Origin: Lates japonicus
Lineage: Eukaryota
Reading direction: 5' to 3'
NCBI GenBank assembly: GCA_033238685.1
Contig: BRZM01000010.1
Coordinates: 3,846,968-3,888,404, forward strand
Length of the DNA: 41,437 nucleotides
Of this stretch, positions 2,842-35,670 are shown piece by piece. Both the position numbers and the translations under genes were made by a program. The first letter of the stretch is position 1. Each line of letters opens with the position of its first letter. Below the pieces are notes generated by a model that had not been told where the DNA came from, did no database searches, and was given only the letters and a program-made list of their open reading frames with translations.

Positions 2842-3151
2842 TCAGAGGCTGTACTCTGTTGATCTGTTGGGCCGTTACCGCAAAGCTCTGGAGACGGCAG
2901 TACAGATCTCCTGCCGTTACAATGTGCCCCCGCTCCCTGGACGGACGGTCATTCTGCTCTCCACTAACATGTCTACGGATCACAACTGGAGCCAGAAGCA
3001 GGACTTCTGCCTCCCACCAGATCCAGAGCAAAAAGAGGAGGTGGAGGTGGAGGTGGAGGAGGAGGAGGAGGAGGAGGAGGAAAAAAAAGTGAGCAGGAGG
3101 ACAAGGGGGAGGACAAACACGGAGGAGACTGACGACAAGCTTGCTCCTTCT
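2842..3151 (+). CDS. tep1: TEP1 exon (TROVE C-terminal part plus acidic linker)
   Basis: Acceptor gcatccag; donor TCT|gtaagg. Encodes ...LLGRYRKALETAVQISCRYNVPPLPGRTVILLSTNMSTDHNWSQKQDFCLPPDPEQKEEVEVEVEEEEEEEEEKKVSRRTRGRTNTEETDDKLAPS. Contains a (GAG)n poly-Glu run at 3040-3085. Confidence 0.65.
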
Positions 3152-20985: not shown

Positions 20986-22223
20986 GTGAGTTAATGTTTT
21001 TAATGTCATTTTTAGCTACTTCAGCTGTCAGTTAATGTTTGCAGAGTTTGGGTTTTCCTCCTTAAAGTCGGATAATAACGTGGGGTTTTTTGCGGTTTAC
21101 CGCCCTGACCTCAATCTGGACAGGGACCAATCGTCTTCATAATAAACAGTGACTTTGAGAAGCAAGTGCTGACTTTTATCTTTTGTTTGAATGTAATGGC
21201 CGAATTAACTTTATAGATAGATTTGTGGTTGGACCCCCATTATACATGGCAGTTTGTTAGAGACAAACCCGTGCCCTAGAGCTGAAGAAATAAGTTCATG
21301 AATCAGCAAATCAGTGATTGATTTGCAACTGTGTTGATAACTAACTAAAGCTTTTATGTCACTTTTAAAGAAAAAATACAAAATTTTCTCTGATGCCAAC
21401 TTCTCAGATGTGATTATTTGCTCGTTGTTTGACTGCTGGTCTGACAAAACAAGACATTTCAATATCTTCTTAATAATAATGGCCACTTATCACTATTGGA
21501 CATATATTATCATATACACTAATCAAACAAGGGACTGTAAATGAAATAATGGAACAGTGATGGTAGATTTGCACATTATGCAGGAACCTTTAGCTGAATT
21601 TTCAATTCTAATATATGGGACACATAAAACAAAGCAATACAGTGATGATCACCATCTTCATTTAATTACCTTTTTATTTACTGTTCCGTCATTGATTAAG
21701 GCTTTAAAATGTAGTTGAGTAGATTCAACAGTTCCTACTTAACTTTTGCTTGTTTTCTATCCAATCTGTTGGTATTTCATTATTTTAATGCCCCAGTTTC
21801 TCCTTCTTAAACAGGCAAATCAGTAAAATGATCATTTCCCCCACCCGAGCCAGAAACATGACAATCACATCAGGTTTTCAGGTCCAGGCATGAAACCAGC
21901 TTCAAGTCCAGACTTGAAATCTGGACATGGAGCTGGACTGTGAGATGTAAACTAGAAAACACCTCCTTTAAAAATGAACAAAATCATCAGTGAGCTGACG
22001 TTATTGATTGGCATCTTATCCAGTTCAGTCTCCATGTAAAGCGGGGGAGCAGTGAGGCAGATTTATGCTGCTGACTCACAGGTCATGTCAGTGTGTGTTT
22101 ACCATCTGTCACTCACTTATACTGAATGTGGCTTCTACGTCAGCACTGAAACAACAGTGGAGATGATTCTCGTTTGTGTGATTTCATCCTTAACATTTTG
22201 TCTCTTCTTCTCTCCTCATTCAG

Positions 22224-22295
22224 CAAAAAGCAGCGTTATTCGGTGGGATGTTCAAGAAATCCACTAAGTCTGCAGAATCCTCTGTCCAAGCACAG
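22224..22295 (+). CDS. ApoL-domain gene, exon 3 (GMFKK module)
   Basis: Acceptor tcctcattcag; donor CAG|gtgata. Encodes QKAALFGGMFKKSTKSAESSVQAQ. Phase 0-0. Confidence 0.6.
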
Positions 22296-22599
22296 GTGAT
22301 ATTGTAGTTTTAATGTTTACTTTATTTAATTTCAATCTAGAAATGAGCTACTACACTGTAGAGTAGAGCAGTTCAGCAGTTCATACAGTGATTTGGTTGA
22401 AAATACCAAGCATTCTTTGAATTTAAGCTTCTCAGAAGGGTTGTTTGTGATAGTAAACTGAGCATCTTTTGGGTTTTGTCTTGCTTTGGCAAATTATAAC
22501 AAACATTTTTGCACCATTTTCTGTAAATTTTATCAATCAGCTGATCAAGAAAATAATCTACAGATTTATCACTCACACAAAGACTCTGTGACATTACAG

Positions 22600-22668
22600 G
22601 ATAATTTATCAGCCAGCAGTGAACTTTCAAAGAGCAATGACAGTCTGACCGACAACAACAACACCAAG
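22600..22668 (+). CDS. ApoL-domain gene, exon 4 (DLSASSELS module)
   Basis: Acceptor gacattacag; donor AAG|gtgtgt. Encodes DNLSASSELSKSNDSLTDNNNTK. Confidence 0.65.
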
Positions 22669-22801
22669 GTGTGTAAATTCATTCATTCATTCAAACCTTA
22701 TTTCTCTTCTCTTATCAACCCATAACTAATGTAAACTGAGTAAATACTATATCACATTTTAAATCAGTGACAGAGATTTTTTATATTGATGAATGTTTCA
22801 G

Positions 22802-22870
22802 GACAAAGGAGGCGTGTTCAAAGGAATGTTTAAGAAGACGACCAAATCTGCCAAAGAGGGTCAGCTACAG
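22802..22870 (+). CDS. ApoL-domain gene, exon 5 (GMFKK module)
   Basis: Acceptor gaatgtttcag; donor CAG|gttcgt. Encodes DKGGVFKGMFKKTTKSAKEGQLQ. Confidence 0.65.
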
Positions 22871-23267
22871 GTTCGTAGAGGCCTTCATGAACTCACTGTG
22901 CTGTACATCTTGTTTTTTTATATTTAAGAGCACAACTGATTGAACTAGAACTGAAATGAGTTGTCAGTTAATCAATTAGTTGATCAACAAATGATTAGTC
23001 AGCAGCAGTTTTGCTCGTTTATTAACATTTATCAAACAAAAAGGTCAAATATTTGCTGGGTCTTAAATCTAAGAGTTTACTGCTTTTCTCTGTTTTATAC
23101 AGTTTGAAACTGAATTTCTTTGGATTACACAATTTTAAGACATCACTTTTAACTATTTTCTGACATTATATAGCCTAAACAATTAATTGATTAATGAATA
23201 TATTTAAATTTGAGTGTTTCCTAAGTTAAATATTCAGATTAGGTATTCAACTTTTTTCTGTTAACAG

Positions 23268-23342
23268 GCCACCCTGTCATTACAAAATCCTGAACTCTCT
23301 GCTAGTAGAGACAGTTTAACAGACAACAAGAAGTCATCAAAG
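23268..23342 (+). CDS. ApoL-domain gene, exon 6
   Basis: Acceptor ttctgttaacag; donor AAG|gtgagt. Encodes ATLSLQNPELSASRDSLTDNKKSSK. Confidence 0.65.
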
Positions 23343-23435
23343 GTGAGTTCAGGTTTTGCTCTGTGATATTATTGGTAAGTTAGTCATGTTAGTCTTTGAA
23401 ACTTAAACTTTTATCTCTCTTCTATCTCTCTTCAG

Positions 23436-23504
23436 GACAAACCAGGTGTTTTGGGTGGGATACTGAAACGACCCAAACTAGGACACGTCCGGAGGCCTTC
23501 ACAG
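23436..23504 (+). CDS. ApoL-domain gene, exon 7
   Basis: Acceptor ctctcttcag; donor CAG|gtgaaa. Encodes DKPGVLGGILKRPKLGHVRRPSQ. Confidence 0.65.
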
Positions 23505-23645
23505 GTGAAACACGATCTTCTGTTACATATCCTGCACACACAAGGAAAATAGATCATCTGGGAAATTATCAGATTAATTGCTGACATCTAGAATGTAGTG
23601 TTGTTTTATTTCAGTAAGAGGCTAACAGATCATCTCATGTTTCAG

Positions 23646-23708
23646 GATCTTTTGGACAATGAGCTCTCAGCCAGTAATGACAGTCTGTCTGAGAACACAA
23701 ACACTAAG
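23646..23708 (+). CDS. ApoL-domain gene, exon 8
   Basis: Acceptor catgtttcag; donor AAG|gtgagt. Encodes DLLDNELSASNDSLSENTNTK. Confidence 0.65.
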
Positions 23709-24190
23709 GTGAGTCTCATCCACCAAATCATTAAAAAAAAATCTTTATCAATAAAACTAGTGTAGATCAGTCAGAGATCACAGCCTGAATAAAAGTTGGT
23801 TATATACCAGACTAAGATTCAAAATCACGAAACGACAAATACACACATATACTGGGGGTTCTGATGCCCTCCAGTAAATGTGCAGAGCTCGACTCACTGA
23901 ATGGAGAGTTTGGTACGTTTGTTGTTTTTGTTTTTGTGTGTAGAGAGCGAGGTGTAACTGCAGTCATCAGCAATTTGAAAGAAAGTACTGGCTGATGTGT
24001 AAATCCCTGCCTGTCTCTCAGCAGGGACAGCTGCATCAGTTTAGAAATACAAAACAAAATAGAGTTTATTTTATTTCAACTAACATTTACAATGTAAGTA
24101 ATTATTTTGTGTTTTTTTTCTTTCTTCAGGAGTCAGGTGGGATGTTCAGTGGGATGTTTAAGTTGCGATGGGACTTTTTTCTTTCTTCAG

Positions 24191-24259
24191 GAGTCAGGTG
24201 GGATGTTCAGTGGGATGTTTAAAAAATCCCCAAAGCTTGGAGTGAGGGCACCATCTCAG
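24191..24259 (+). CDS. ApoL-domain gene, exon 9 (GMFKK module)
   Basis: Acceptor ctttcttcag; donor CAG|gtgaga. Encodes ESGGMFSGMFKKSPKLGVRAPSQ. A truncated copy of the acceptor and first 33 nt lies 60 nt upstream. Confidence 0.65.
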
Positions 24260-24354
24260 GTGAGAGCTGTGCATTTCACTCATTTCACTTTAACCTGCTT
24301 TACAGTATGAGGAGATGATAATATTAATTACTTGGAGACGCTTCTCTCCCTCAG

Positions 24355-24423
24355 GATGACTTGTCTGCACCAAGCGAGCTCTCAGGCAGCAACGACAATC
24401 TTTCTGCAAATGGCAACACTAAG
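24355..24423 (+). CDS. ApoL-domain gene, exon 10
   Basis: Acceptor ctccctcag; donor AAG|gtgagg. Encodes DDLSAPSELSGSNDNLSANGNTK. Confidence 0.65.
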
Positions 24424-24663
24424 GTGAGGTGACCTTCACGAGCTTGTCTTGTACACTGTTACACTAACAGACTATAATCTTTAACTTCTGAACTGTAACA
24501 CAACACCGTTTTCAAGGCTGAGTTTGGAGCAATTTTGGAAGGAAGGCTCATCCTATTTGAATGAGAGTACAAACTGCTGTGTCAAATTCCTGCTCGAGTA
24601 AAATCCTCCACTATGGAAAAATGCTCTCAAACTGTAGTTTTAATATGATCTTTTTTTCTCTAG

Positions 24664-24732
24664 GAGTCAGGTGGGATGTTCAGTGGAATATTTAAAAAAT
24701 CAAAGCCCTCCGGCGCAAGGACACAATCTCAG
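24664..24732 (+). CDS. ApoL-domain gene, exon 11 (GMFKK module)
   Basis: Acceptor tttttttctctag; donor CAG|gtgaga. Encodes ESGGMFSGIFKKSKPSGARTQSQ. Confidence 0.65.
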
Positions 24733-24827
24733 GTGAGAGTTGTGCATCTGACTTGTCTCACATTTACTTGTGTTACTTTATAAAGAGATGATAAATGAAT
24801 TGGTTGATGATTGTGTCTCACCTTCAG

Positions 24828-24893
24828 GAGGATTTGTCTGCAGCCAGCGAGCTCTCAGGCAGCAACGACAATCTTTCTGAGAACAACGCAAAG
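24828..24893 (+). CDS. ApoL-domain gene, exon 12
   Basis: Acceptor tctcaccttcag; donor AAG|gtgtgt. Encodes EDLSAASELSGSNDNLSENNAK. Confidence 0.65.
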
Positions 24894-24987
24894 GTGTGTT
24901 AGAGCCATCTCCATCCTCAACTGAAACAAAAACTTCAACCATAACCATAAATAATGTAATTGTTAATGTTGTATATTATTTTCCTAG

Positions 24988-25044
24988 GAGAAGGGAGGAT
25001 TTCTAAGTGTGTTCAAGAAAAAAGCGGCCAGATCTCAGTCTCAG
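24988..25044 (+). CDS. ApoL-domain gene, exon 13
   Basis: Acceptor ttttcctag; donor CAG|gtaaga. Encodes EKGGFLSVFKKKAARSQSQ. Confidence 0.65.
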
Positions 25045-25398
25045 GTAAGATGAAAGTTAGTCAACGACAGGTTTTCAGTACAAATTGTTAAGTATTCTGT
25101 TTGAGTAATATTTCCTGGAAAAGTGAAAAAGTACATCAAAGTGGAAAAGAGTTGTGTCAAGTATTTTGTTTTCAGGAGGGGTACAAATACTTATATACTT
25201 ATATATATGCTTCTATTTTTTGCCCACTCATTTTTCACCTCACTGACAACTTAAAACAGAATATTTTGTCTGAGCTCTTCACTTGACTAACCTCCTTACC
25301 TTATAAATAAACTATAACCTGTTTGTAATTGTATCTGATGGTTATTTTGTGTCTTTTTTTGTCTTGGTTTTTGGGTTATAATGTATCACTCTTTATAG

Positions 25399-25458
25399 GA
25401 TGATTTGTCTGTGGAAGATGAACTCAGCACTGACAGTCTCACAGAGAAGCCTTCAAAG
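25399..25458 (+). CDS. ApoL-domain gene, exon 14
   Basis: Acceptor ctctttatag; donor AAG|gtgagg. Encodes DDLSVEDELSTDSLTEKPSK. Confidence 0.6.
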
Positions 25459-25581
25459 GTGAGGGATGAGGCTTGTTTGTTTGTTTGAAGCCTTTTTCAC
25501 TTGGACCTGCACTGCATGAACATGTAAGGAACAGCTGAAGATGTCAGATTGTAATTTAAAGTGCTCTTTAATCTCTGTCAG

Positions 25582-25632
25582 GGTGGAGTGGCAACAAAGA
25601 TCCGGAAGAATCCTTTCACTTCCTCATCTCAG
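25582..25632 (+). CDS. ApoL-domain gene, exon 15 (NPF)
   Basis: Acceptor tctctgtcag; donor CAG|gtcatt. Encodes GGVATKIRKNPFTSSSQ. Confidence 0.6.
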
Positions 25633-25744
25633 GTCATTTTCTCTCTCAATGAATGCTGCATCATATGAAATATTCTACCAGCCTGTTGCTGATGCTTTCT
25701 GATTGGTGAAATGCTGCTGATGTTTCTTTGTGTTATTATATCAG

Positions 25745-25819
25745 GAAAAGGAAACGACTGAACACTCTGGAGACTCAAATGAGAATACCTCCTCCACAGA
25801 GAAACCCAAAGCCAAGCAG
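25745..25819 (+). CDS. ApoL-domain gene, exon 16
   Basis: Acceptor ttattatatcag; donor CAG|gttggt. Encodes EKETTEHSGDSNENTSSTEKPKAKQ. Confidence 0.6.
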
Positions 25820-26041
25820 GTTGGTCATTACACCAAAAATCTTTTCTCTGTTGTCTTAACACTTTGGACGGAGACATTGTGGCATGAAAATCATTTTTTT
25901 AAAATTACTTTTTAGGCTTTAAGAAATTCAGATTTTTTTTGTCTGAATGTTTAGGAATGAGATCTGCTGCAATGTCAGGGTCAGGGCTACAATATGTTAT
26001 TTTTGTGAGAGGACAGTAACAGTGTCTTTGTCTTTTTTCAG

Positions 26042-26089
26042 AACGGTTTCAGTGCAATGATGAAGAGCACGTTCTACACTGACAAACAG
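26042..26089 (+). CDS. ApoL-domain gene, exon 17
   Basis: Acceptor tcttttttcag; donor CAG|gtgaga. Encodes NGFSAMMKSTFYTDKQ. Confidence 0.6.
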
Positions 26090-26182
26090 GTGAGATGTGG
26101 TGTATTGCACTCCATCATACTCCCCTGAAACTATATATTGTGGAAAAGTTTAACAATATGTTTTTGAAATTTTGATTTGCAG

Positions 26183-26251
26183 GAGAAGAACTCAGATTCT
26201 GATGATGAGGAGACACTGGACAATGGAGAGGGCCAGCATAGTCACAAACAG
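26183..26251 (+). CDS. ApoL-domain gene, exon 18
   Basis: Acceptor gatttgcag; donor CAG|gtttgt. Encodes EKNSDSDDEETLDNGEGQHSHKQ. Confidence 0.6.
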
Positions 26252-26372
26252 GTTTGTAAGGTTTTTAAATTTTTGGTAAAAGTTTTTGTTGTGTTGTTTG
26301 GATCTGATCAGCAGTTTCATTCATGTATTTCCATGTAGTTCAATTTCTCTTGATTTCTTTTCTCATATTCAG

Positions 26373-26426
26373 AATAAACTTGCTGGGGCGATGACAAAGC
26401 TGAATCCATTTCGATCTGCACACAAA
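26373..26426 (+). CDS. ApoL-domain gene, exon 19 (NPF; paralogue of exon 21)
   Basis: Acceptor tctcatattcag; donor AAA|gtaagg. Encodes NKLAGAMTKLNPFRSAHK. Confidence 0.6.
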
Positions 26427-26564
26427 GTAAGGGCAGTTTAGTTTGTAATCTTTTGATTTAGCGCTGAAGAAATAAGAAAAGTTCCTACTGATAATTCCAC
26501 AAGGACTGAACGGCCTAATTTATTTGTTTTTCATGAAGTAAGGATTTCTGTCTTCTCTGTGCAG

Positions 26565-26636
26565 AATGAGAAGCTGACAGGTTCTGATGATGAGGATCCA
26601 CCTGCAAGCAGCGATAAGTCATCAGGCGACAAACAG
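26565..26636 (+). CDS. ApoL-domain gene, exon 20
   Basis: Acceptor ttctctgtgcag; donor CAG|gtgctt. Encodes NEKLTGSDDEDPPASSDKSSGDKQ. Confidence 0.6.
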
Positions 26637-27551
26637 GTGCTTTGATATTGTTTGCAGTTACACACCACGGTTCTCTGATGCCATCAGGGCTTTAGTGTCT
26701 TGCTTTGTTGCCACTGATATGCAAGAGGCATTGTGAAGTCCTTAGGTAGAAAAGACGAAAGTCATGAGTCAAATCTTGAAGTTTTTAACAAACATTTTAC
26801 CCATAGGCCCTATCTGCAGTCCAGCTCAGCTTGTCTTGTCTGGTCTTCATACCTTAATTCTTTCAAGTAAATATCACAGAGAACAGCTTCTTCATCTTGC
26901 AGACTAAAGTTCACAGTAGAGAGTGGACAAAAAAAGTAGAGCAGGAGGACATGCAACAAGGGATTCCCTCTGGGACATTAAACTGGAGGTGCTGCAGCTC
27001 ATGTTCAGCATCCTGACCCCTTAAGAAAACAGTACATGATATTAAACTCCATCAGTAGGAAAACAAGAAGACATGGCAGCCTGACAGGTTTCTGATCAAC
27101 ATCTGAACAACTAATTTTTTATTTTTTTTTTGCTTTGAATTTCCTCTGTAGACATATTTGTTGAACATCAATCAAGTGCCCTTGTCTGCTCAGGAATAAT
27201 AGCCTTGTGGTGACATACTTTTGTTTGCAATCTGAATGCATTGTCACTGTACTAAAAATAGGTCATTAGTAGTCATTACATTACTGTAAAATAAAAGGCT
27301 CAGTTATCTGTTAGCCTCACATCATCTGTCTGTGCTTCTGAAAAACACTAAATCTAAACACATAACATAAATGAACAATCTTGACATGGATTTCTTTGAT
27401 TTGTTTTTGGTTCCTCTTACTTCTCTGTATCTTTAATGAGCTAATGTTGGTCTAGCTTTACTCTGAGCCGAGTGTGGTTCATGGCTGACAAAGCAGATGC
27501 AAATCTGAAATGTTGAGGCATCCACTTAGAACGATGTGCTCTTCCTCTCAG

Positions 27552-27605
27552 AACGCTATGATTGGAGCCATGTCCAAACTGAATCCATTTCGCTCTGGAA
27601 ACAAA
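27552..27605 (+). CDS. ApoL-domain gene, exon 21 (NPF; paralogue of exon 19)
   Basis: Acceptor ctcttcctctcag; donor AAA|gtaatt. Encodes NAMIGAMSKLNPFRSGNK. Confidence 0.6.
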
Positions 27606-28153
27606 GTAATTATGCTGTTAAATGTGTTTGGTGTTGGTGGAGGTGGTAGTGAGGTAGTCATAATCAGGACTATGATAGTGGTGGTGATGTCTGTAGGGAT
27701 TTCTTTGTTCATTTTAATGAGTAGCGCCGATGTGCTGAACACTCTTATACCAGTATGTTTGCATGTTTTAGCTTGTTGACTACAGATCACATAAACTTTT
27801 AATCACAGCTAACTGTGTTGGTGCAATTGACATTTTTTTATTTAGTTTTTCGACTTGAGACAAACACTTGTTTCTCTTCATTTCAGTACTATATAAAGAT
27901 CTATTACCATAGTCTTTACAGCTTTGACAAACTTTTCAAAAGTCTGCCTTTTGATTTTTGTGCCGTACAGAAGTGAATGAAAATGACTGTAATGGTAGAG
28001 TAGGTCAAATAGCATTTGAAAATAGTCACCAAAATATAATGAGATTCATTGTTGAGGAGCTAAAATGTGCAAAAGTACTGGTACAGACCTGTAAACACTA
28101 GAAAAGTTATCAGATTTTGGTTTAATATCTAATATTTCATGTCCTTTGTTCAG

Positions 28154-28216
28154 AAAGACACTGAAGACACAGAGGCACTCAAGGAGAACAAGAAACAAGT
28201 GGAGGAGCCGAAAATG
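28154..28216 (+). CDS. ApoL-domain gene, exon 22
   Basis: Acceptor tcctttgttcag; donor ATG|gtcagt. Encodes KDTEDTEALKENKKQVEEPKM. Confidence 0.6.
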
Positions 28217-28255
28217 GTCAGTCTATTTATTGCATCACTTATGAGTCATCAGTGA

Positions 28256-28256
<1 letters not shown>

Positions 28257-28296
<40 letters not shown>
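28257..28296. repeat. (CA)n microsatellite, about 20 units, intronic
   Basis: A cacacaca... run is read directly from the sequence. Confidence 0.95.
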
Positions 28297-28297
<1 letters not shown>

Positions 28298-28454
28298 CTG
28301 ATCAACTTCTCTCAAAAATACCCCATCTCCTCAAGCTCCTCCTCTTCCGTACCTCCACCACATCCTCCTCTTCCCCTTACCTCCCTGTAAATCCTGCCTG
28401 CTCGCTCTCAGACCTCAGTGTCCTCCTGCTCCAGCACACTGTGTGACTCTGTCT

Positions 28455-28486
<32 letters not shown>
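28455..28486. repeat. (TG)n microsatellite, about 14-16 units, intronic and complementary to the upstream (CA)n
   Basis: A tgtgtgtg... run is read directly from the sequence. Confidence 0.95.
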
Positions 28487-28495
28487 CCTTGTCAG

Positions 28496-28573
28496 GTCAA
28501 AAGCAACATGAACCAGCGAGAAAGGAAAGAAAGGAGTGAAACTCCATTGGTCCCACCCAGACCAACTGAAGAG
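28496..28573 (+). CDS. ApoL-domain gene, exon 23 (paralogue of exon 25)
   Basis: Acceptor gtccttgtcag; donor GAG|gtttgc. Encodes VKSNMNQRERKERSETPLVPPRPTEE. Confidence 0.6.
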
Positions 28574-28673
28574 GTTTGCATGCAGTCGAACACACCTGCT
28601 GTTCAGTGAAATGCGGTCCATGTGAGGCTTCTCTGACTTCTCCTCTGTCGGTCTCTGTCATTTTGTGCTGCAG

Positions 28674-28739
28674 GAAATGAAGAGGACTTCCACATATGAC
28701 AAAGTAAAACCAAGAGGAACTGAGGATAATCATAATCAG
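28674..28739 (+). CDS. ApoL-domain gene, exon 24 (paralogue of exon 26)
   Basis: Acceptor tgtgctgcag; donor CAG|gtacag. Encodes EMKRTSTYDKVKPRGTEDNHNQ. Confidence 0.6.
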
Positions 28740-29004
28740 GTACAGTTTGCACTTCTCAGATTTACAAAACAACGTGCAGGTCTGTATATTTCTTTTGTCC
28801 TCAGAGTTTTTTTTATTTCATTTGAACATATATGTCAGGATACAAATTAAATAAGTTATATAACAATCTTATGCCACATAGCAAGCAGCAAGCATAACAT
28901 TTACATACAGTGCTTTTAAAATAGTCATAAGTGGTTAAATTTCATGTTTTGTATCACTAGGTATCACTGTCACTTTACAAATATTGGTGTGTCTTTATTT
29001 GCAG

Positions 29005-29085
29005 GATAAAAAGGACATGACCTCCAGACAGAAAAAAGAAAAGCCTGCTGAGACTCCTGTAGTTCCTACCAGACCAACAGGGGAG
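29005..29085 (+). CDS. ApoL-domain gene, exon 25
   Basis: Acceptor ctttatttgcag; donor GAG|gtagag. Encodes DKKDMTSRQKKEKPAETPVVPTRPTGE. Confidence 0.6.
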
Positions 29086-29214
29086 GTAGAGTAAGCCTCC
29101 GGTGTACAGAACATTGGTTGTTTGTATCAGTTTGGAGCTGATGTATATCCATGTGTATCAATGCTGGACTGTGAGCCCTCGTGTTTTAGGAAACTTTTCT
29201 GGTTTAAATTTTAG

Positions 29215-29268
29215 GAGATGAACAGAGGAGCAAGACATGATATGCAAAAGCAGAAGACCAACCATCAG
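29215..29268 (+). CDS. ApoL-domain gene, exon 26
   Basis: Acceptor taaattttag; donor CAG|gtattg. Encodes EMNRGARHDMQKQKTNHQ. Confidence 0.55.
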
Positions 29269-29505
29269 GTATTGATGTGTACACACAGTACAAGCGTTGA
29301 ACTGATGCAAGGGTTTGCTGATAGGCTGAGCTGTTTGATTGACTTTGAATATCAGTTATTGGCTATGCTGTAAGTTACTCTCTGACCACTGTTACAAAAA
29401 ATCCCTAAAAACCTCTCATTTAAAAGAGATGCTAATGCTAAAAGATATTTGAAGGTAAACAAAATAAAAAATCTGTTATTAACTAAGTGGCTTACTTTGC
29501 TGCAG

Positions 29506-29592
29506 AGCCAGTCAGATGATGAAGGTCTCAAACAGGATGACTCTGCAGAGGCCAAAGACGAAGATGGGGTGAACCATCCAGAGAGCAAAACA
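29506..29592 (+). CDS. ApoL-domain gene, exon 27
   Basis: Acceptor ctttgctgcag; donor ACA|gtgagt. Encodes SQSDDEGLKQDDSAEAKDEDGVNHPESKT. Confidence 0.6.
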
Positions 29593-29639
29593 GTGAGTTT
29601 ATCTCTTCATCATCATTGGTCATGCTGCCGGTGATTGGC

Positions 29640-30120
29640 TGTAACGTGACATGTGGTAGAGGCATGCAGGAACAATACGTGGTTACGCCCACGGACGGGG
29701 TTCACGTGTATCTGTGTTGTGAACTACTGCAAAAAGGACATCGTTGCTAAGTCTGGCAACACGACCAATTTGATTAAGCATTTGAACATGCACGGAATCA
29801 ATTTAAGAGCAGAAAGTTGCTCCATGTTCAACTGCACGGGAGATTTAAAGGTCCTTAATATGCAGCAGTGAGCATTAGACACTGACTTGTCACTTGTTCT
29901 TTTGCACACAGTGGAAAAATGCCGAAGCTGAAAAATAAAACTCAAGATTTGTACCATAATATGTAATGTCATTTTCTTTGTTAGAATTGATTTGATATTA
30001 TATTGATATTATATATAATTGGTATTGAAAAAAGTTCAGGAACCGGTGTCAAAGTCAAGGTATTGGTATCGGTACCGGTATTGAAAATTTTTGAACGATA
30101 CCCAGCCCTAACTTAATGAC
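29640..30120 (+). mobile_element. Remnant of a hAT-type transposon with BED zinc-finger coding fragment, intronic
   Basis: ORF 29653-29871 encodes ...FTCICVVNYCKKDIVAKSGNTTNLIKHLNMHGINL. This fits the C..C...(S/T)TxNLxxHLxxxH BED-finger pattern. It is followed by short ggtaccggtatcgg-type repeats. The element is truncated and lacks a transposase core. Confidence 0.4.
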
Positions 30121-30886
30121 AGTTACATAAAGCTGGACAGACTTATTTACATAAAATGTATGTATGAGTCATCTGCGTGTGGTTTGAACCCACCTCTTGC
30201 TGCAACATGCAGGTGAAAACAAACACAGTATTTGAGAACTGTACTCTGCCAGGATCTAATTGTTCTAGTTCCTGCTTCCTTCTTATCAGTTCTTTCATGC
30301 CAGAGCCATGCAGATGACATGTGGCACCTTCAGGCTATTGTCAGAGTTTAACAAAGCTAACACTAACCCTTACCCTAGTCATGTGTTGTTTTTTTCCCCT
30401 TTTTGTTTGCCCTTAAGTAGCTTAAAGGTTATTAAGTTCATTTTGTTCCACTCTGTCTGACAGTATCATATATTCTGGAGAATGCTGGTGCAGTGTTTTA
30501 TTAAAGCTATAGTATGTTTATTGAGTGAAATATTCATTTACACATTTACCCAAAGCTAGAGTTTGTAATGACTGTCCCACCACTGCTGTTCATCAGAGGA
30601 ATGTGTTAATCTTCTAGCAGTAAGAGTACATGTTGGTGAGATCAGACTGTAATTAACTTTGATATACATTAAACAAAAATATAGATTCTTGAGTATTTGA
30701 GGAATGAAACAAACACAACATGTATGTATATTATTTGCTGAGAGATGTTTTTTGTTGCTCTTTGACAGTAGCAGCACATTAAGCACAGATGCAGTTGTTT
30801 TATTCAGTCACCAATGGCTCAAATGAAATGTAGTTTTTCCAGTTATTGTCACCTAACACACCTGTCTCTGTGCCATTTTTTTACAG

Positions 30887-30943
30887 GCCAAGGTGAAAAA
30901 ACACACGCACCATAACCCGTTTATGCCACGTGTTGCAGCCAAG
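30887..30943 (+). CDS. ApoL-domain gene, exon 28 (HNPFMPRV module; paralogue of exon 30)
   Basis: Acceptor ttttttacag; donor AAG|gtacat. Encodes AKVKKHTHHNPFMPRVAAK. Confidence 0.6.
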
Positions 30944-31497
30944 GTACATGACAGACTAGACATTTATCTATTTTCCACTTTCTGCCTACAACACCTGGGC
31001 TTATGTTTAATGCATTACCTGCTCAATTTTGTTTGGCAAAGGCTACCCAATGTTAAAGGAGCTACTTGTAAGTTGTGCTGTAGCTGCATAGTCAAAGTTG
31101 ACAGCTGTTTGGTTTCCAGTTTAGAGGTAATGTTGCAAGTCACCAAGAGCATTGTCACCAAGAGCTGTCTCCAGTGGTGGAAAGCAACAGCAATGTTTTA
31201 CTTCTTGTTCTACCACTGCTTTTCTTCTACTTAATTAGCTAACTGAAGTTAGTATTGCTAACCAGCTAGCCAGCCTGTCTCACCACTTTCCTTGCGACTC
31301 ACTGTAGCATCAAGACAGCCCTGAAAAAGTAGCGCAGTGATGACTGAAGCTCTTGGCAGGCTGTCACCACCACCCACTACCACATTTGGTGGCAGAGAAA
31401 ATTTACAAATAGCCCCTTTAATGTTTAAATGTTATTTTAATTCACAATTGTTACACTGATGCTTTATTATAGTGTGTTTGTTTATGGTTTGTTTTAG

Positions 31498-31587
31498 GCT
31501 GCATCTGATGATGAGGAGCTGAAAGAAGAAGATGAATCTTCATCCAAAGAGGAAAAGAAAGATGAGGAGGACAAGGACAAAAAAGAG
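31498..31587 (+). CDS. ApoL-domain gene, exon 29 (acidic)
   Basis: Acceptor ggtttgttttag; donor GAG|gtcatt. Encodes AASDDEELKEEDESSSKEEKKDEEDKDKKE. Confidence 0.6.
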
Positions 31588-31761
31588 GTCATTTAATTAA
31601 TTCCCTCTGCTTCATTTTTGCTTGTCGGTTTTTTTAGTTTGATTTTGACATTGATAGTCATCACAAACATTTTACTGTAAATACAGCTGAAGGAATATTT
31701 CAGAGTTTGATGTATATGTTCCCTGAGGTAACACTTAAATCCTGTTTTGTCTTCCTTTTAG

Positions 31762-31812
31762 ACCAAAGTCAAGAAACCTAAGCGACACAATCCGTTTATG
31801 CCACGGGTCAAG
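31762..31812 (+). CDS. ApoL-domain gene, exon 30 (HNPFMPRV module)
   Basis: Acceptor cttccttttag; donor AAG|gtaaca. Encodes TKVKKPKRHNPFMPRVK. Confidence 0.6.
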
Positions 31813-32853
31813 GTAACATTGAAACACATGACATATGACTGACAAACTTGTTTCCTCCCATGTCAGTAGTACCTCTCACTGGAGTCACATCTTTCACATC
31901 CCTACAACCTAATCAAAATGAATCAGATATTTTTGGGGGGGTTGGGGAAACAGTGGATTTATTTCAGTGTGGAGCCCTTGCAGCAGGCAGTGTATTTCTA
32001 TGTGCTACTGAACAAGACAAACTATAATTTGAGTTGACTGATCCAGACTGACGTCACATGTGACGCATCCACCCGTGTCAGGCATTCAATGGTTGTTAGT
32101 CTTTGCAAATTAAATTCAATGTTGAATATACGAGCGATCATGTGAAAGAAGCTGATGTCAGTGGGTGTTAACTAACAAAAACAAAACTTCCAGAGGAGGT
32201 TTGGTGATTTCCAATAAAGACAACACCAACCCATGTAAAATCCAAAGCTTTGTCAAAAAATACTACCTGCTCCATAGTGCAGTAGGAACTTGGAACTGAA
32301 CTTTGAATCATACACAATTTTCCCTCTCTGAGACAGAACAGATCTGAAGGCAGAAATTATCTACTTGTTTGAATTATTCTGTTAAGTGTTTTGATGATGG
32401 TAGTGGAGAGAGCTGTCTGACACCCTCCCATACTGTAGCTGTTCAGTTGGGTTGAGATCTCGTGACCATAAGCATCATTTTCATACTGATCATATCATTC
32501 AATGAACCTTTGTGACCTTTATCTGGTTTGTTTCTCCATTCGTATGCTTAGTGTATAGTTTGCCACCTGTTTGTATCTCTCTTGCTGCTGACTGAGGATA
32601 TGAAGTCTTGCCATGTTATTTTGGCAAGATAAGTTACTGTGGCATAGATGAAACTCCAAACACATATTATCTTTAGGAGCTAATCTTTGACCTAGTTACC
32701 TACCTGCTAACTTGAAGATCAGGGAAAATTAAAATAAGAAGTTACTGTGACATTGATATTTTGTCCAGTGTGCCTTTTTGCTTTGTAACATATATAAGCT
32801 AAATTTCTATTTATAATACAGGTGCTTTAATGGTGTGTTTGTCTTTGTTTCAG

Positions 32854-32907
32854 GCCAAAGCTGTACAGAGGCATGCAGGGGACGGAGCTGCAGACAATAC
32901 AGCAGAG
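32854..32907 (+). CDS. ApoL-domain gene, exon 31
   Basis: Acceptor gtctttgtttcag; donor GAG|gtagag. Encodes AKAVQRHAGDGAADNTAE. Confidence 0.6.
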
Positions 32908-33656
32908 GTAGAGAGAAGAAAACACACATCAGTCTTTGCTTCTCTGAGACAGAAAATTGTATTTGACGTTGCTTCTCTTTCTGACTTCTCCTTTCTTAAG
33001 TTGCCTGGCACACACACTAAGCTTTGAACTAAAAGCAACTTCTACCCATTTCCCACCCAGTCGATATCAGAATATTTGTCCATGGGACTGACATGTTGCG
33101 GTCTTACTCATTGTGGTTCAAGATAACAGACAACAGGTCTGTTTCAGTCACCTGATCCCTCCACTCCTCCTCCCTGAAAACAACCTCTTTCTTGCAGTTA
33201 TTTACAGTGTTTGTCTCCAGGGCGTCTACTCAGCTCCCAACAGAGACTATTATAGCCAACATGCTCTGCTGTTGTTTTGTCCCTCCGCTGCTGACATGAA
33301 ACCCACCCCCACACCTTCACACGGTGTTTGTGCATGTCTGTAACATGGAAGATGAGCTGAGATTAGGTTACAATGTGCCCAGACTTGTTTCTCTGCTTCC
33401 CTTTTCATTGTGTCCATGGAAAAGTTTGGCTCTCTTTACTTCTGCAAAAGCGGCAGTCAGACCATTCAAAATCCCTTATACCATCACTTCCCTTCTCTTA
33501 GTCTGAGCACACATCATATAAAAAGTGAAACTGAGTATATGTGATAAGTTCAGTTAAGTAAGATAAGTTTCAGTCTTGTCTCACTGATATAAACTTCAAC
33601 AACACTAAGAGATTTTGTCTCAACATTTTAAAGCTGTATTATTTCTGTTTTTGCAG

Positions 33657-33734
33657 AATGAAGGTGGAAACAGGTCCTTGTTTGACCAGCTGGAGGACTT
33701 CCGTATTGATCCAGCACAGCCTGAAAATGAGCAG
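33657..33734 (+). CDS. ApoL-domain gene, exon 32
   Basis: Acceptor tctgtttttgcag; donor CAG|gttggt. Encodes NEGGNRSLFDQLEDFRIDPAQPENEQ. Confidence 0.6.
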
Positions 33735-33842
33735 GTTGGTCTCTGAAACAAGATATGTCACCAAATTTAGATTCTGATACAGTCTGATGCGCCATTATTT
33801 ACTGTTTATAGCATCTGTTAAAATGCAAATGGTATCTTTCAG

Positions 33843-33882
33843 GATGTGGAGGATCTTATGGAATGGTGGAACACAGTGGAGT
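33843..33882 (+). CDS. ApoL-domain gene, exon 33
   Basis: Acceptor tggtatctttcag; donor T|gtgagt. Encodes DVEDLMEWWNTVE(S) and ends phase 1. The alternative donor two nt upstream gives an immediate stop in the next exon, so it was rejected. Confidence 0.5.
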
Positions 33883-33899
33883 GTGAGTTACAATAAAAT

Positions 33900-34375
33900 G
33901 TTTATCATTTTGTTTAGCTTTTTTGTGGGGTTTACTCTGAGGGTACAGGGCCGAATTTTGAGTTTTTTCTATAAGCACTTTCACTACATGACCAAAAGTA
34001 TATGGACGACTCTGTTTACATACATCTACATGCTGCTTTTCAAGGTTTGGGCCACAAAATCTGAATGCTACAGCATCAAATTTTAGACAGTAGTGTACAG
34101 TTTGAGGAAATCCCTCTCCAGCTTCAACATGACAATGCACAAAGCCAGATGAATATCATCAGTGCTGGACCTCACCAGTGCTGTAATGGTTGAATGGGAC
34201 CAAATCCCTGCAGTCAGGTTCAAAAATCTGGTAGAAGACCTGAAACCAGAAGAGTCTTATATGGGTCTCATATAGCAGCAGATAATGCTCATGGTTTTGA
34301 AATTAGATGTTCAACAAGCACATGAGCATCATGTTCTGGTGCCCACATACTTTTGGCCAAGTAATGTGTGTGAGA
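33900..34375 (+). mobile_element. Tc1/mariner-like transposase remnant (C-terminal DDE region), intronic
   Basis: Frameshifted translation gives ...LQLQHDNAQSQMNIISAG... and ...EWDQIPAVRFKNLVEDLKPEESYMGLI.... These resemble Tc1 motifs (QQDNAPCHTA... / EEWSKIP..LV.SMP.R...VI.AKGG.T.Y). The typical Tc1 end tacttttggccaag is present. Confidence 0.45.
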
Positions 34376-34421
34376 TGATGAGAAAGATAACAATTGTTCT
34401 TTCTTAATTTTACTTCCTCAG

Positions 34422-34473
34422 CATGGGAAGACACGCCTCAAGATGATGACATGACAGAAAAAGAAGAGGCCAA
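34422..34473 (+). CDS. ApoL-domain gene, exon 34
   Basis: Acceptor ttacttcctcag; donor AA|gtaagt. Encodes (S)WEDTPQDDDMTEKEEA(K). Confidence 0.55.
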
Positions 34474-34712
34474 GTAAGTGAAGGGTCAAATATATAAGCC
34501 CATACTGCATCTTTTCTTCGGTCTCTTCAGTATACCTTTTTCTCTTAATTCTAGTGGTATTTAGGCATGCAGATGCTTTCAGTTTTATGCACATACTACT
34601 ACTAATACACTACTGTCTGCATGTCTACATACACTGGCGTAAGTAGAAAAAATGTCATTTTTAGATACAGTGACCTGGCTCTATGTAATTACTCTCAACA
34701 TTATGTATTCAG

Positions 34713-35670
34713 GGCATTTGCTGTGACGGCTGAAAAGGTGCAGAAGGGAATCCGTGTCTTCAACAAACTGTTCTCGGAGCGCGCTGAGAGTCTCTGGCAG
34801 CACGTCATCGACCTCAACGGCATTGCTGATGCCCTGGACAAGTTCAACAAGAAAACAAAGATCGCTCAAATCACCGGCGGCTCCACTAGCGCCATTGGGG
34901 GTGTTGCCACCATCGCCGGCCTTGCTCTGGCCCCAGTCACTATGGGAACCTCTTTGATTGTGACGGCAGTGGGATTGGGCGTTGCCACAGCGGGCGGTCT
35001 GACATCAGCAGGTGCCGGCATCTCCAACCAGGTCAACAACTCAATGGACCGCAAGAAGGTGGAGAAGATCGTGGAAGACTACCAGGAAAAGATGGTGGAC
35101 TTGAACAAGTGCCTGAAATTCATCAAGCAGGGTATTGAGAACCTGCGCAAATTTGACCTGATCAAGATGAAAAAACATGCATACAATCGTGACTTCCCTG
35201 TGCTCAGTAGTAGTTTCTATGAGGACGGTGCCATGGCAGGAAAAGCTATCCTCATCAACGCCAATGAGATCATGCGTGTGGTTCAGATCGCCAACGTGGC
35301 CGGCAGCACAGCAGCCAGAGCGGTGCAGATCGCCAGCATGGCCACTGGTGTGCTCACTGGCCTCTTCGTAGGTATGGACATCTACTTTGTGGCTAAAGAC
35401 TCCAAAGAACTCAAGAAAGGAGCAAAGTCAGAGTTCGCTGCCAAAATCAGGGAGGTGGCAACACAACTGCACGATGGTCTGGTGGAGCTCAACTCAATAC
35501 GAGAGGAGCTGCAGTCCACCACACCAGAAAACAACCCTGACAAAGATACAGCTGCTTTGGATGATGACAAGAAAGAGAAAGATGATAGATATGACAGTTC
35601 AGAAGAAGATGAAATTGACCGCATTAAAAAAGCCATCAAAAAGGACTATGAGAATCGAGAATATGTGTGA
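34713..35670 (+). CDS. ApoL-domain gene, terminal coding exon: apolipoprotein-L family domain
   Basis: Acceptor cattatgtattcag; an alternative acceptor tcatttttag at 34664 would add 16 in-frame codons. Encodes (K)AFAVTAEKVQKGIRVFNKLFSERAESLWQHVIDLNGIADALDKFNKKTKIAQITGGSTSAIGGVATIAGLALAPVTMGTSLIVTAVGLGVATAGGLTSAGAGISNQVNNSMDRKKVEKIVEDYQEKMVDLNKCLKFIKQG...GMDIYFVAKDSKELKKGAKSEFAAKIREVATQLHDGLVELNSIREELQ..., then an acidic tail and TGA at 35668-35670. The Gly/Ala-rich membrane-insertion hairpin and overall layout match the ApoL family (Pfam PF05461). Confidence 0.8.

Follow-up and report, generated by a model that had tools for sequence, protein, structure and literature searches.

Does the long N-terminal arm of a fish ApoL-family protein carry docking sites for the EH domains of the endocytic machinery? 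The question is raised by a 41,437-nucleotide stretch of Lates japonicus DNA (assembly GCA_033238685.1, contig BRZM01000010.1, positions 3,846,968 to 3,888,404 of the forward strand; hereafter the window), in which a teleost apol1-type gene encodes five Asn-Pro-Phe (NPF) tripeptides ahead of a C-terminal ApoL domain. An earlier inspection of the letters without database searches (the sequence-only reading) had placed these tripeptides in exons 15, 19, 21, 28 and 30, the last two sharing a duplicated HNPFMPRV motif, and had proposed them as EH ligands. All five were found, in frame and on the + strand, at 25609 (IRKNPFTSS), 26403 (TKLNPFRSA), 27582 (SKLNPFRSG), 30914 (THHNPFMPR) and 31789 (KRHNPFMPR); elsewhere in the 41 kb there is one further NPF across the three + frames and one on the - strand. 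Comparison among orthologues indicates that the five are true short linear motifs on which purifying selection acts at the level of the protein, and we put the probability that they act as EH-domain docking sites at roughly 0.55. The gene and its NPF exons are as follows.

20813..35670, + strand: teleost apol1-type gene, whole coding span, 35 exons, 1031-residue conceptual protein
25582..25632, + strand: exon 15 of the gene model, GGVATKIRKNPFTSSSQ, class A NPF, codons 25609-25617
26373..26426, + strand: exon 19 of the gene model, NKLAGAMTKLNPFRSAHK, class B NPF, codons 26403-26411
27552..27605, + strand: exon 21 of the gene model, NAMIGAMSKLNPFRSGNK, second class B NPF, codons 27582-27590, a cassette in other species
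30887..30943, + strand: exon 28, AKVKKHTHHNPFMPRVAAK, class C NPF, upstream copy, codons 30914-30922, present in the Lates japonicus annotation
31762..31812, + strand: exon 30, TKVKKPKRHNPFMPRVK, membrane-proximal class C NPF, codons 31789-31797, the universally conserved copy
34713..35670, + strand: exon 35, ApoL domain (Pfam PF05461), Gly/Ala-rich hydrophobic hairpins and an acidic tail

The gene model was assembled from AG/GT-bounded open exons and then adjusted to the orthologue consensus, and the exon numbers given by the sequence-only reading agree with it. Exons 2-32 are all 48-90 nt long and multiples of 3 nt, so that skipping any one of them leaves the frame intact; the arm is built of short phase-0 exons with one module per exon, and each NPF exon is itself short, AG/GT-bounded and a multiple of three in length. 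The last 555 residues of the model, both HNPFMPRV exons included, are matched at 100% identity by a partial Lates japonicus protein (P0097, 555 aa); this match fixes exons 24-35 and with them these two NPFs. Positions 25,582 to 31,812 of the window thus code for the middle and membrane-proximal portion of an arm of about 700 residues that stands ahead of the ApoL domain. Searching with the conceptual protein brought up, in over 100 fishes, full-length orthologues of 50-81% identity; their records go by the name 'apolipoprotein L1 isoform X..' or by low-complexity misnomers.

The C-terminal ApoL domain that had been proposed is present in the last exon, which matches PF05461 with E=3.4e-37 (128.9 bits against a cut-off of 25.9, profile positions 43-297 of 298). 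ApoL is the sole Pfam family above threshold in this exon, which thus holds no SCAMP-type tetraspan domain, and a PDB sequence search with the ApoL exon gave no match. Identity within the domain is 0.90 among acanthomorphs and 0.81 teleost-wide. Exons 33-34 (33843-33882 and 34422-34473, + strand; DVEDLMEWWNTVE and SWEDTPQDDDMTEKEEA) form a WW helix and an acidic linker adjoining the domain.

We asked how many NPFs the composition of the arm would yield by chance. The expectation for the 690-residue arm is 0.057, and none of 200,000 shuffles at the arm's composition gave five, the highest count being three. The five copies are not independent, the exon pairs that hold them having been duplicated, and they reduce to three independent classes, which remain far above chance. 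The copies differ in synonymous codons at all three positions (AAT or AAC, CCT, CCA or CCG, and TTC or TTT), pointing to constraint that acts on the protein rather than on the RNA. A splicing-enhancer constraint behind the conservation of the NPFs is disfavoured on the same ground.

The sequence-only reading had staked its proposal on conservation of the NPFs in other fishes, and all three classes are found across teleosts. Nearly every orthologue has three NPF contexts, namely class A (KILKNPFTSSSQ), class B (MTKLNPFRSANK) and class C (PKRHNPFMPRVK). Across 51 aligned acanthomorph species mean identity over the arm is 63%, and the NPF is identical in 98-100% at exon 19, 96-100% at exon 28 and 100% at exon 30; exon 30 is also the best-conserved exon of the arm (0.90), equal to the ApoL domain. 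For wider sampling, a profile built from 30 orthologues was run against 1.8 billion cluster representatives, with two further searches besides, and these reach Elopomorpha, Clupeiformes, Otophysi, Salmoniformes, Esociformes and Osteoglossomorpha. Of the 30 representatives that were named, 29 are teleosts and one is the mammal Condylura, which lacks an NPF arm.

Eels, tarpon and shad have all three NPF classes, as do Acanthomorpha. Class A (GKIL[KR]NPF..S.Q) occurs in Elopomorpha, Clupeiformes, Characiformes, Esociformes and Acanthomorpha, and class C in every teleost lineage sampled, including cyprinids, catfishes, characins, salmonids, pikes and osteoglossomorphs (for instance QKKKPKNPFMPQIA in Danio aesculapii, VKKKKNPFMPHV in catfishes and characins and KGKKARNPFLPRRE in Scleropages). 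Class C has the extended consensus K-[KR]-x-N-P-F-[ML]-P-[RQH]-[VI]. Among the 183 orthologue sequences with enough sequence upstream of the WW helix, 179 have an NPF 41-78 residues (median 57) before it; the other four are exon-skipping isoforms or poor gene models. In a teleost-wide alignment of 20 species, where identity over the arm falls to 0.30, the exon 30 NPF is 100% conserved, and the sole tripeptide islands of at least 75% in the arm are the class A NPF (alignment positions 298-300) and the class C K..NPF.P (628-635).

The length of the arm itself varies about seven-fold among teleosts. Cyprinid apol1 proteins (P0351, P0353 and P0347, Danio aesculapii included) are about 460 aa long, with an arm of about 100 residues and one NPF, and the zebrafish apol1 locus of nephropathy studies has been described as a 2.6-kb gene (PMC4492502).

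The NPF exons stand among other repeated modules. The sequence-only reading had described NPF exons interleaved with acidic, casein-kinase-like exons 18, 20, 27 and 29, and this is exactly the arrangement: each of the four acidic exons has precisely one S[DE][DE][DE] match, a predicted CK2-type SDDE site.

26183..26251, + strand: exon 18 of the gene model, acidic, EKNSDSDDEETLDNGEGQHSHKQ, one SDDE
26565..26636, + strand: exon 20 of the gene model, acidic, NEKLTGSDDEDPPASSDKSSGDKQ, one SDDE, a duplicate of exon 18 (72% nucleotide identity, introns at background)
29506..29592, + strand: exon 27 of the gene model, acidic, SQSDDEGLKQDDSAEAKDEDG..., one SDDE
31498..31587, + strand: exon 29 of the gene model, acidic, AASDDEELKEEDESSSKEEKKDEEDKDKKE, one SDDE
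28496..28573, + strand: exon 23, ETPLVPPRPTEE, PxxPxR (class II SH3-type) from the motif scan
29005..29085, + strand: exon 25, ETPVVPTRPTGE, second PxxPxR, a duplicate of exon 23
33657..33734, + strand: exon 32, SLFDQLEDFR, Fxx[FL]xxxR-like, 98% match among orthologues, helix predicted at residues 634-641 of the Xiphias orthologue
22600-22668, + strand: exon 4, placed through the orthologue consensus
22224..25044, + strand: exons 3-13 of the gene model, GG[MVF]F.G[MI]FKK basic-aromatic exons alternating with DDLSxxSELSGSNDNLS acidic exons
22224-22295, 22802-22870, 23436-23504, 24191-24259, 24664-24732 and 24988-25044, + strand: the six GGMF exons of the gene model

An acidic exon and the NPF exon that follows it form a two-exon unit, and two such units have been duplicated, 18+19 with 20+21 and 27+28 with 29+30. 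Exons of the duplicated pairs are 68-76% identical and their introns 0.52-0.64, against a background of 0.54 +/- 0.04; with introns at background identity, the duplications are old. The two PxxPxR motifs are predicted class II SH3 ligands, PLVPPR being matched in 78% and PVVPTR in 57% of the 51 acanthomorph orthologues, and P[x][IV]PPR is also kept in Otophysi (catfishes and characins) and in Umbra.

The intron before exon 23 holds (CA)20 at 28257-28296 and a (TG)n/(CTGTGTGTGT)n tract at 28439-28486, which ends 9 nt 5' of the exon 23 acceptor at 28496; the PxxPxR exons are cassettes in isoforms of other species. CFTR exon 9, where TDP-43 is involved, is a known case of a UG repeat set directly against a 3' splice site.

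Upstream, the recurring GGMFSGMFKK motif had been suggested to form short amphipathic membrane-binding segments, a suggestion that found no support. The AlphaFold model places just one short helix across the repeats (residues 19-24, just before the first GGMF), the GGMF segments are not at the top of the hydrophobic-moment scan, and the maxima lie beside the motif core, not on it. Membrane contact through an unstructured patch of basic and aromatic residues, as in the MARCKS effector domain, is an alternative. Exon pairs 9/10 and 11/12 are a younger duplication, with exons 84% identical and one-sided flanking intron identity of 0.73-0.74 against 0.54. The class A NPF exon resembles a GGMF module with an NPF appended in a comparison of exon 15 with orthologues P0302 and P0435 (Astyanax SSGMFGWIFRNPFGSS, Esox GGMLGKIFWNPFASF, Lates GGVATKIRKNPFTSS), and exon 17 (NGFSAMMKSTFYT) and class B (NKLAGAMTKLNPFRS) are built on a frame in common with class A. 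A GGMF-like module also occurs in the paralogous apold1a family.

Constitutive skipping of the NPF exons, which would have left the motifs out of the protein, was not seen when predicted isoforms were compared within 15 species: these exons are included in many isoforms, some of them as cassettes. Cassette use of the 18-residue counterpart of exon 21 is seen in Fundulus, Syngnathus typhle, Seriola and Chaetodon (where it reads NLF), and a few species have lost the NPF of this redundant class B copy to NIF, NFF or NLF. Pairs made of an acidic and a class C exon behave likewise in Fundulus, Acanthopagrus, Cyprinodon, Sparus and Syngnathoides, as do those of GGMF and DDLS exons in Hippoglossus, Gymnodraco, Epinephelus, Labrus and Trematomus, and the PxxP exons vary between isoforms too. 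Orthologue sequences hold 1 to 8 NPFs per protein, and isoforms change that number by whole exons.

Short linear motifs of this kind are expected to be exposed, and the arm had been called disordered. The swordfish (Xiphias) orthologue, 81% identical, agrees with this, its AlphaFold pLDDT (predicted local distance difference test) score being below 50 over residues 1-649 with almost no secondary structure. The arm is rich in K, S, E and D, and the Xiphias model has short predicted helices immediately ahead of the class B NPF and over SLFDQLEDF and DLMEWWNTV. The N-terminus (MDRYDNLDLDLECDGGGVAQK; MDRYDNLDLDLECDGGG...) is acidic, is conserved in orthologues and has neither a hydrophobic core nor a signal peptide; the N-terminal signal peptide of secreted APOL1 is thus missing here. 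Human APOLs without a signal peptide, such as APOL2 and APOL3, lie on the cytoplasmic face of endoplasmic reticulum and Golgi membranes (PMC8358165), and zebrafish apol1 likewise has no secretory signal (PMC4492502).

Which receptor might read these motifs? The sequence-only reading had named Eps15, EHD and intersectin proteins together, and this stood in part: flanks of the Eps15/intersectin type, disorder and conservation argue for EH docking, and the charge of the flanks disfavours the EHD1-4 subfamily. There is no Asp or Glu within three residues of any NPF (IRK-NPF-TSS, TKL-NPF-RSA, SKL-NPF-RSG, THH-NPF-MPR, KRH-NPF-MPR), and the acidic clusters begin 5 to 11 or more residues past the Phe. 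N-terminal-type EH domains disfavour acidic flanks (PMC2238750), and EHD1-4 favour acidic residues directly after the NPF (PMC13282721). Positions +1 to +3 are neutral or basic in all five NPFs (T-S-S, R-S-A/G, M-P-R), by which EHD-type binding is disfavoured, and EHD1-4 were rejected as preferred partners.

Single NPF-EH contacts are weak, with affinities of about 0.2-0.35 mM (PMC12370899). For binding to EPS15 it matters that there are several NPFs (PMC12808100, PMC12370899), and only a peptide with three of them was bound by EPS15 (PMC12808100). A splice-adjustable array of three to five NPFs agrees with the avidity on which EH clients rely. Intersectin has SH3 domains beside its EH domains, and the proline-rich partners of the former include SOS and dynamin (PMC3645719).

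Several observations weigh against EH docking. NPF is also read by SEC23/24, POLE2, SSBP2/LDB1 and AURKA (PMC12808100). Class C is kept well beyond the tripeptide, with K at -3, K/R at -2, M/L at +1 in 179/179 and P at +2 in 166/179, and the conservation of K -3, M/L +1 and P +2 is not explained by a generic EH pocket; class C also fits the class I SH3 consensus [RK]xxPxxP. Cyprinids and other short-armed lineages keep one NPF only, of class C, and the affinity of a single site is weak. Avidity through oligomerisation of the ApoL domain or through the polybasic stretch on acidic lipid, a composite site, and another receptor are possible readings of this surplus conservation in class C. The cytosolic topology of the arm is itself inferred, from the missing signal peptide and the parallels with human APOLs and zebrafish apol1. 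The Lates japonicus annotation reaches exons 24-35 only, and exons 15, 19 and 21 rest on the gene model. Finally, a motif scan of the 712-residue arm returned the conserved PxxPxR pair and FDQLEDFR, and its regular expressions found no clathrin box L[ILMFV]x[ILMFV][DE] and no AP-2 alpha-appendage motif (DP[FW], FxDxF or WxxF), so the arm is not a canonical clathrin adaptor. FDQLEDFR was compared with the AP-2 beta2-appendage motif [DE]x{1,2}Fxx[FL]xxxR: 98% of orthologues fit Fxx[FL]xxxR and the segment is a predicted helix, but the acidic residue 2-3 positions before the F is missing.

Of the other explanations, the one that survives best holds that the NPFs are functional and the receptor is not an EH domain, but COPII SEC23/24 in export from the endoplasmic reticulum, or else POLE2, SSBP2/LDB1 or AURKA. 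Several unrelated NPF readers with overlapping interaction networks are documented (PMC12808100), human APOLs sit on the endoplasmic reticulum and Golgi membranes where COPII acts (PMC8358165), and class C is kept past its NPF core, the flanks being what decides POLE2 binding. Yet a disordered arm with NPFs repeated along it is the hallmark of EH clients, among them epsin, synaptojanin, Dab2 and SCAMP1 (PMC12370899, PMC8927860). POLE2, SSBP2/LDB1 and AURKA are moreover nuclear or centrosomal, whereas the protein here ends in a hydrophobic membrane domain. The NPF of yeast Sed5 that binds SEC24 has a YxxxNPF context, which is absent from the arm NPFs. We consider a non-EH receptor improbable on balance.

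It is also improbable, in our judgement, that K[KR]xNPF[ML]P is mainly a class I SH3 ligand or a composite site in which the NPF is secondary. RHNPFMP does fit [RK]xxPxxP in 98% of the 51 orthologues, the K/R at -2 and the P at +2 are strongly kept teleost-wide, and the arm presents separate PxxPxR SH3-type ligands. However, the N and F, which the class I motif does not require, are invariant in 179/179, and classes A and B retain the NPF without any proline frame. In the form RxΦPxΦP of the motif a hydrophobic residue is usual where class C has its Asn.

We would give as little weight to the idea that the NPFs are kept for an intramolecular or membrane role, either as a turn docking onto the ApoL domain in autoinhibition, on the model of the KPFxxxNPF loop of EHD2, or as part of a basic-aromatic membrane patch. 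The fixed spacing of class C from the WW helix and domain (41-78 residues, median 57), the polybasic stretch upstream of class C and the apparent derivation of class A from the GGMFxGMFKK basic-aromatic module would suit it, as would the internal KPFRKLNPF loop described in EHD2 (PMC4398442). But classes A and B are set hundreds of residues away from the domain, at distances that vary and in cassette exons, a placement more in keeping with trans-acting docking sites; nor was an EH-like fold detected in the ApoL domain, where PF05461 is the only match and the PDB sequence search was empty.

That the NPFs are a functionless by-product of exon duplication and low-complexity composition is effectively refuted by the conservation data, in that, although two of the five copies duplicate others and in some species the NPF of exon 21 has become NIF, NFF or NLF, three independent classes stand against an expectation of 0.057, the motifs are invariant over teleosts while the arm is at 30% identity, and they persist through duplications that are ancient by their background-level introns.

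EH docking would then work as follows. The arm would face the cytosol and offer its NPFs as low-affinity, multivalent docking sites for EH-domain proteins, more likely of the N-terminal EH type (Eps15/Eps15R, intersectin, REPS, gamma-synergin) than EHD1-4, and the ApoL membrane domain would thereby be tied to the endocytic and vesicle-budding network, as the NPF repeats in SCAMP1's N-terminal stretch do for that protein. The basic-NPF-[ML]P motif about 57 residues before the domain would be the ancestral, obligatory site; additional copies would have come from the ancient duplication of two-exon units (an SDDE acidic exon and an NPF exon), and cassette splicing would tune the valency. CK2-type phosphorylation of the adjoining acidic exons could modulate binding, and the PxxPxR motifs may supply SH3 contacts. 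With its EH and SH3 domains together, intersectin would be the most economical single partner. We tentatively extend this to a fuller picture, which we hold to be possible rather than probable: teleost Apol1 as an alternatively spliced, multivalent scaffold seated in the membrane, which would link an ApoL domain with a pore or membrane-remodelling role to an EH/SH3 endocytic network (intersectin/Eps15) through an ancestral basic-NPF-[ML]P site and lineage-specific NPF, PxxPxR and phospho-acidic modules.

Among known systems, SCAMP1 offers the closest architectural parallel, being an integral membrane protein with cytosolic N-terminal NPF repeats. These repeats bind the EH domains of gamma-synergin and intersectin, and linking them raises affinity by avidity (PMC8927860, PMC3645719). 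The likeness is functional and architectural only: SCAMP1 has a tetraspan domain in place of ApoL, and its binding is demonstrated, that of the fish arm putative. SCAMP1 packs three NPFs into about 50 residues; the fish arm spreads 1-8 over up to about 350, in cassette exons with SDDE and PxxPxR modules between them. Epsin, synaptojanin-170, Dab2, Hrb/AGFG1 and stonin 2 also carry multiple NPFs in long disordered regions, through which they engage the EH domains of Eps15 and intersectin weakly and multivalently (PMC12370899, PMC12808100, PMC3645719). In Dab2 a helix beside the NPF joins in binding, and the fish arm has a short predicted helix directly ahead of its class B NPF. Unlike the fish arm, which is anchored to a membrane domain and lacks clathrin-box and AP-2 motifs, adaptors of the epsin type are soluble and possess both. 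Ligands of EHD1-4 (MICAL-L1, Rabenosyn-5, Rab11-FIP2) share the NPF core, but theirs is followed straight away by acidic residues (e.g. NPFEEEEED) needed by the basic EHD EH domain (PMC13282721).

Human APOL1-6 and APOLD1 share the C-terminal ApoL domain PF05461, and APOL2-6, like the fish protein, have no signal peptide (PMC8358165); in contrast to the fish protein, no long N-terminal arm and no NPF or EH link is described for human APOLs in the literature searched. The fish ApoL domain is slow (the 0.81 identity teleost-wide), whereas primate APOL genes evolved rapidly (PMC4492502). Upstream of the fish gene, in tail-to-head arrangement, lies the 3' part of a gene for TEP1 (telomerase-associated protein 1; 1 to about 18600, + strand), with TROVE, DUF4062, WD40 and TEP-1 C-terminal propeller matches and a poly-Glu GAG repeat at 3035-3081. 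The human APOL cluster adjoins MYH9. Given a place next to TEP1 in the fish and by MYH9 in human, one-to-one orthology with human APOL1 is not established.

NPFs recur before ApoL domains elsewhere in fishes. A paralogous long-armed family (si:cabz01007807.1 / APOLD1-like) has 1-4 NPFs against 0.1-0.2 expected, for example S-x-NPF-[YH]-[ST]-[YH]-[YH], and about 20 of its 22 representatives have at least one. A long-armed apold1b (707 aa, in one species, Periophthalmus) has four, and the apold1a family has GGMF-like motifs and no NPF. Such recurrence argues that the link is functional, whether inherited or convergent.

Other contents of the window and its surroundings are minor. Intron 27 holds, at about 29680-29790 (+ strand), a BED zinc-finger fragment (..CVVNYCKKDIVAKSGNTTNLIKHLNMHG.., Pfam zf-BED E=7e-5) with stop codons all round, probably a dead hAT-type transposon. 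The open-frame listing of both strands shows no obvious gene in 35.7-41.4 kb, and Rfam and tRNA scans of the window gave no matches. In another assembly (GCA_022829145.1, locus L001) two ApoL-domain genes stand in tandem about 4 kb apart.

Full-text literature searches found no paper tying ApoL or apol1 to NPF or EH domains, and a literature search on apold1a/b in teleosts returned nothing useful. The proteins were already known as automatic predictions; what appears new is a putative NPF/EH link in the ApoL family, an unexpected family for multivalent NPF clients.

Apart from trypanolysis by human APOL1, the cellular role of the ApoL family is unsettled, and zebrafish apol1 has been taken as a proxy for human APOL1 in models of nephropathy (PMC4492502, PMC4854397). 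Every teleost lineage sampled keeps at least one invariant NPF-type motif, and many have an array of them that splicing could adjust; this makes for a cheap, testable hypothesis, namely that ApoL1 recruits EH-domain trafficking proteins or is itself their client. The architecture of fish Apol1, with its long arm, lack of a signal peptide and very slowly evolving domain, is unlike that of human APOL1, which bears on cross-species rescue experiments. The gene is also a clean case of one motif per micro-exon, in which two-exon duplication and cassette splicing set motif valency. Were the scaffold picture true, the ancestral job of the ApoL family would lie in vesicle traffic, not in innate immunity, with two or three paralogous long-armed fish families also bearing NPFs, and fish apol1 would differ from human APOL1 in mechanism too, despite its use in kidney-disease models.

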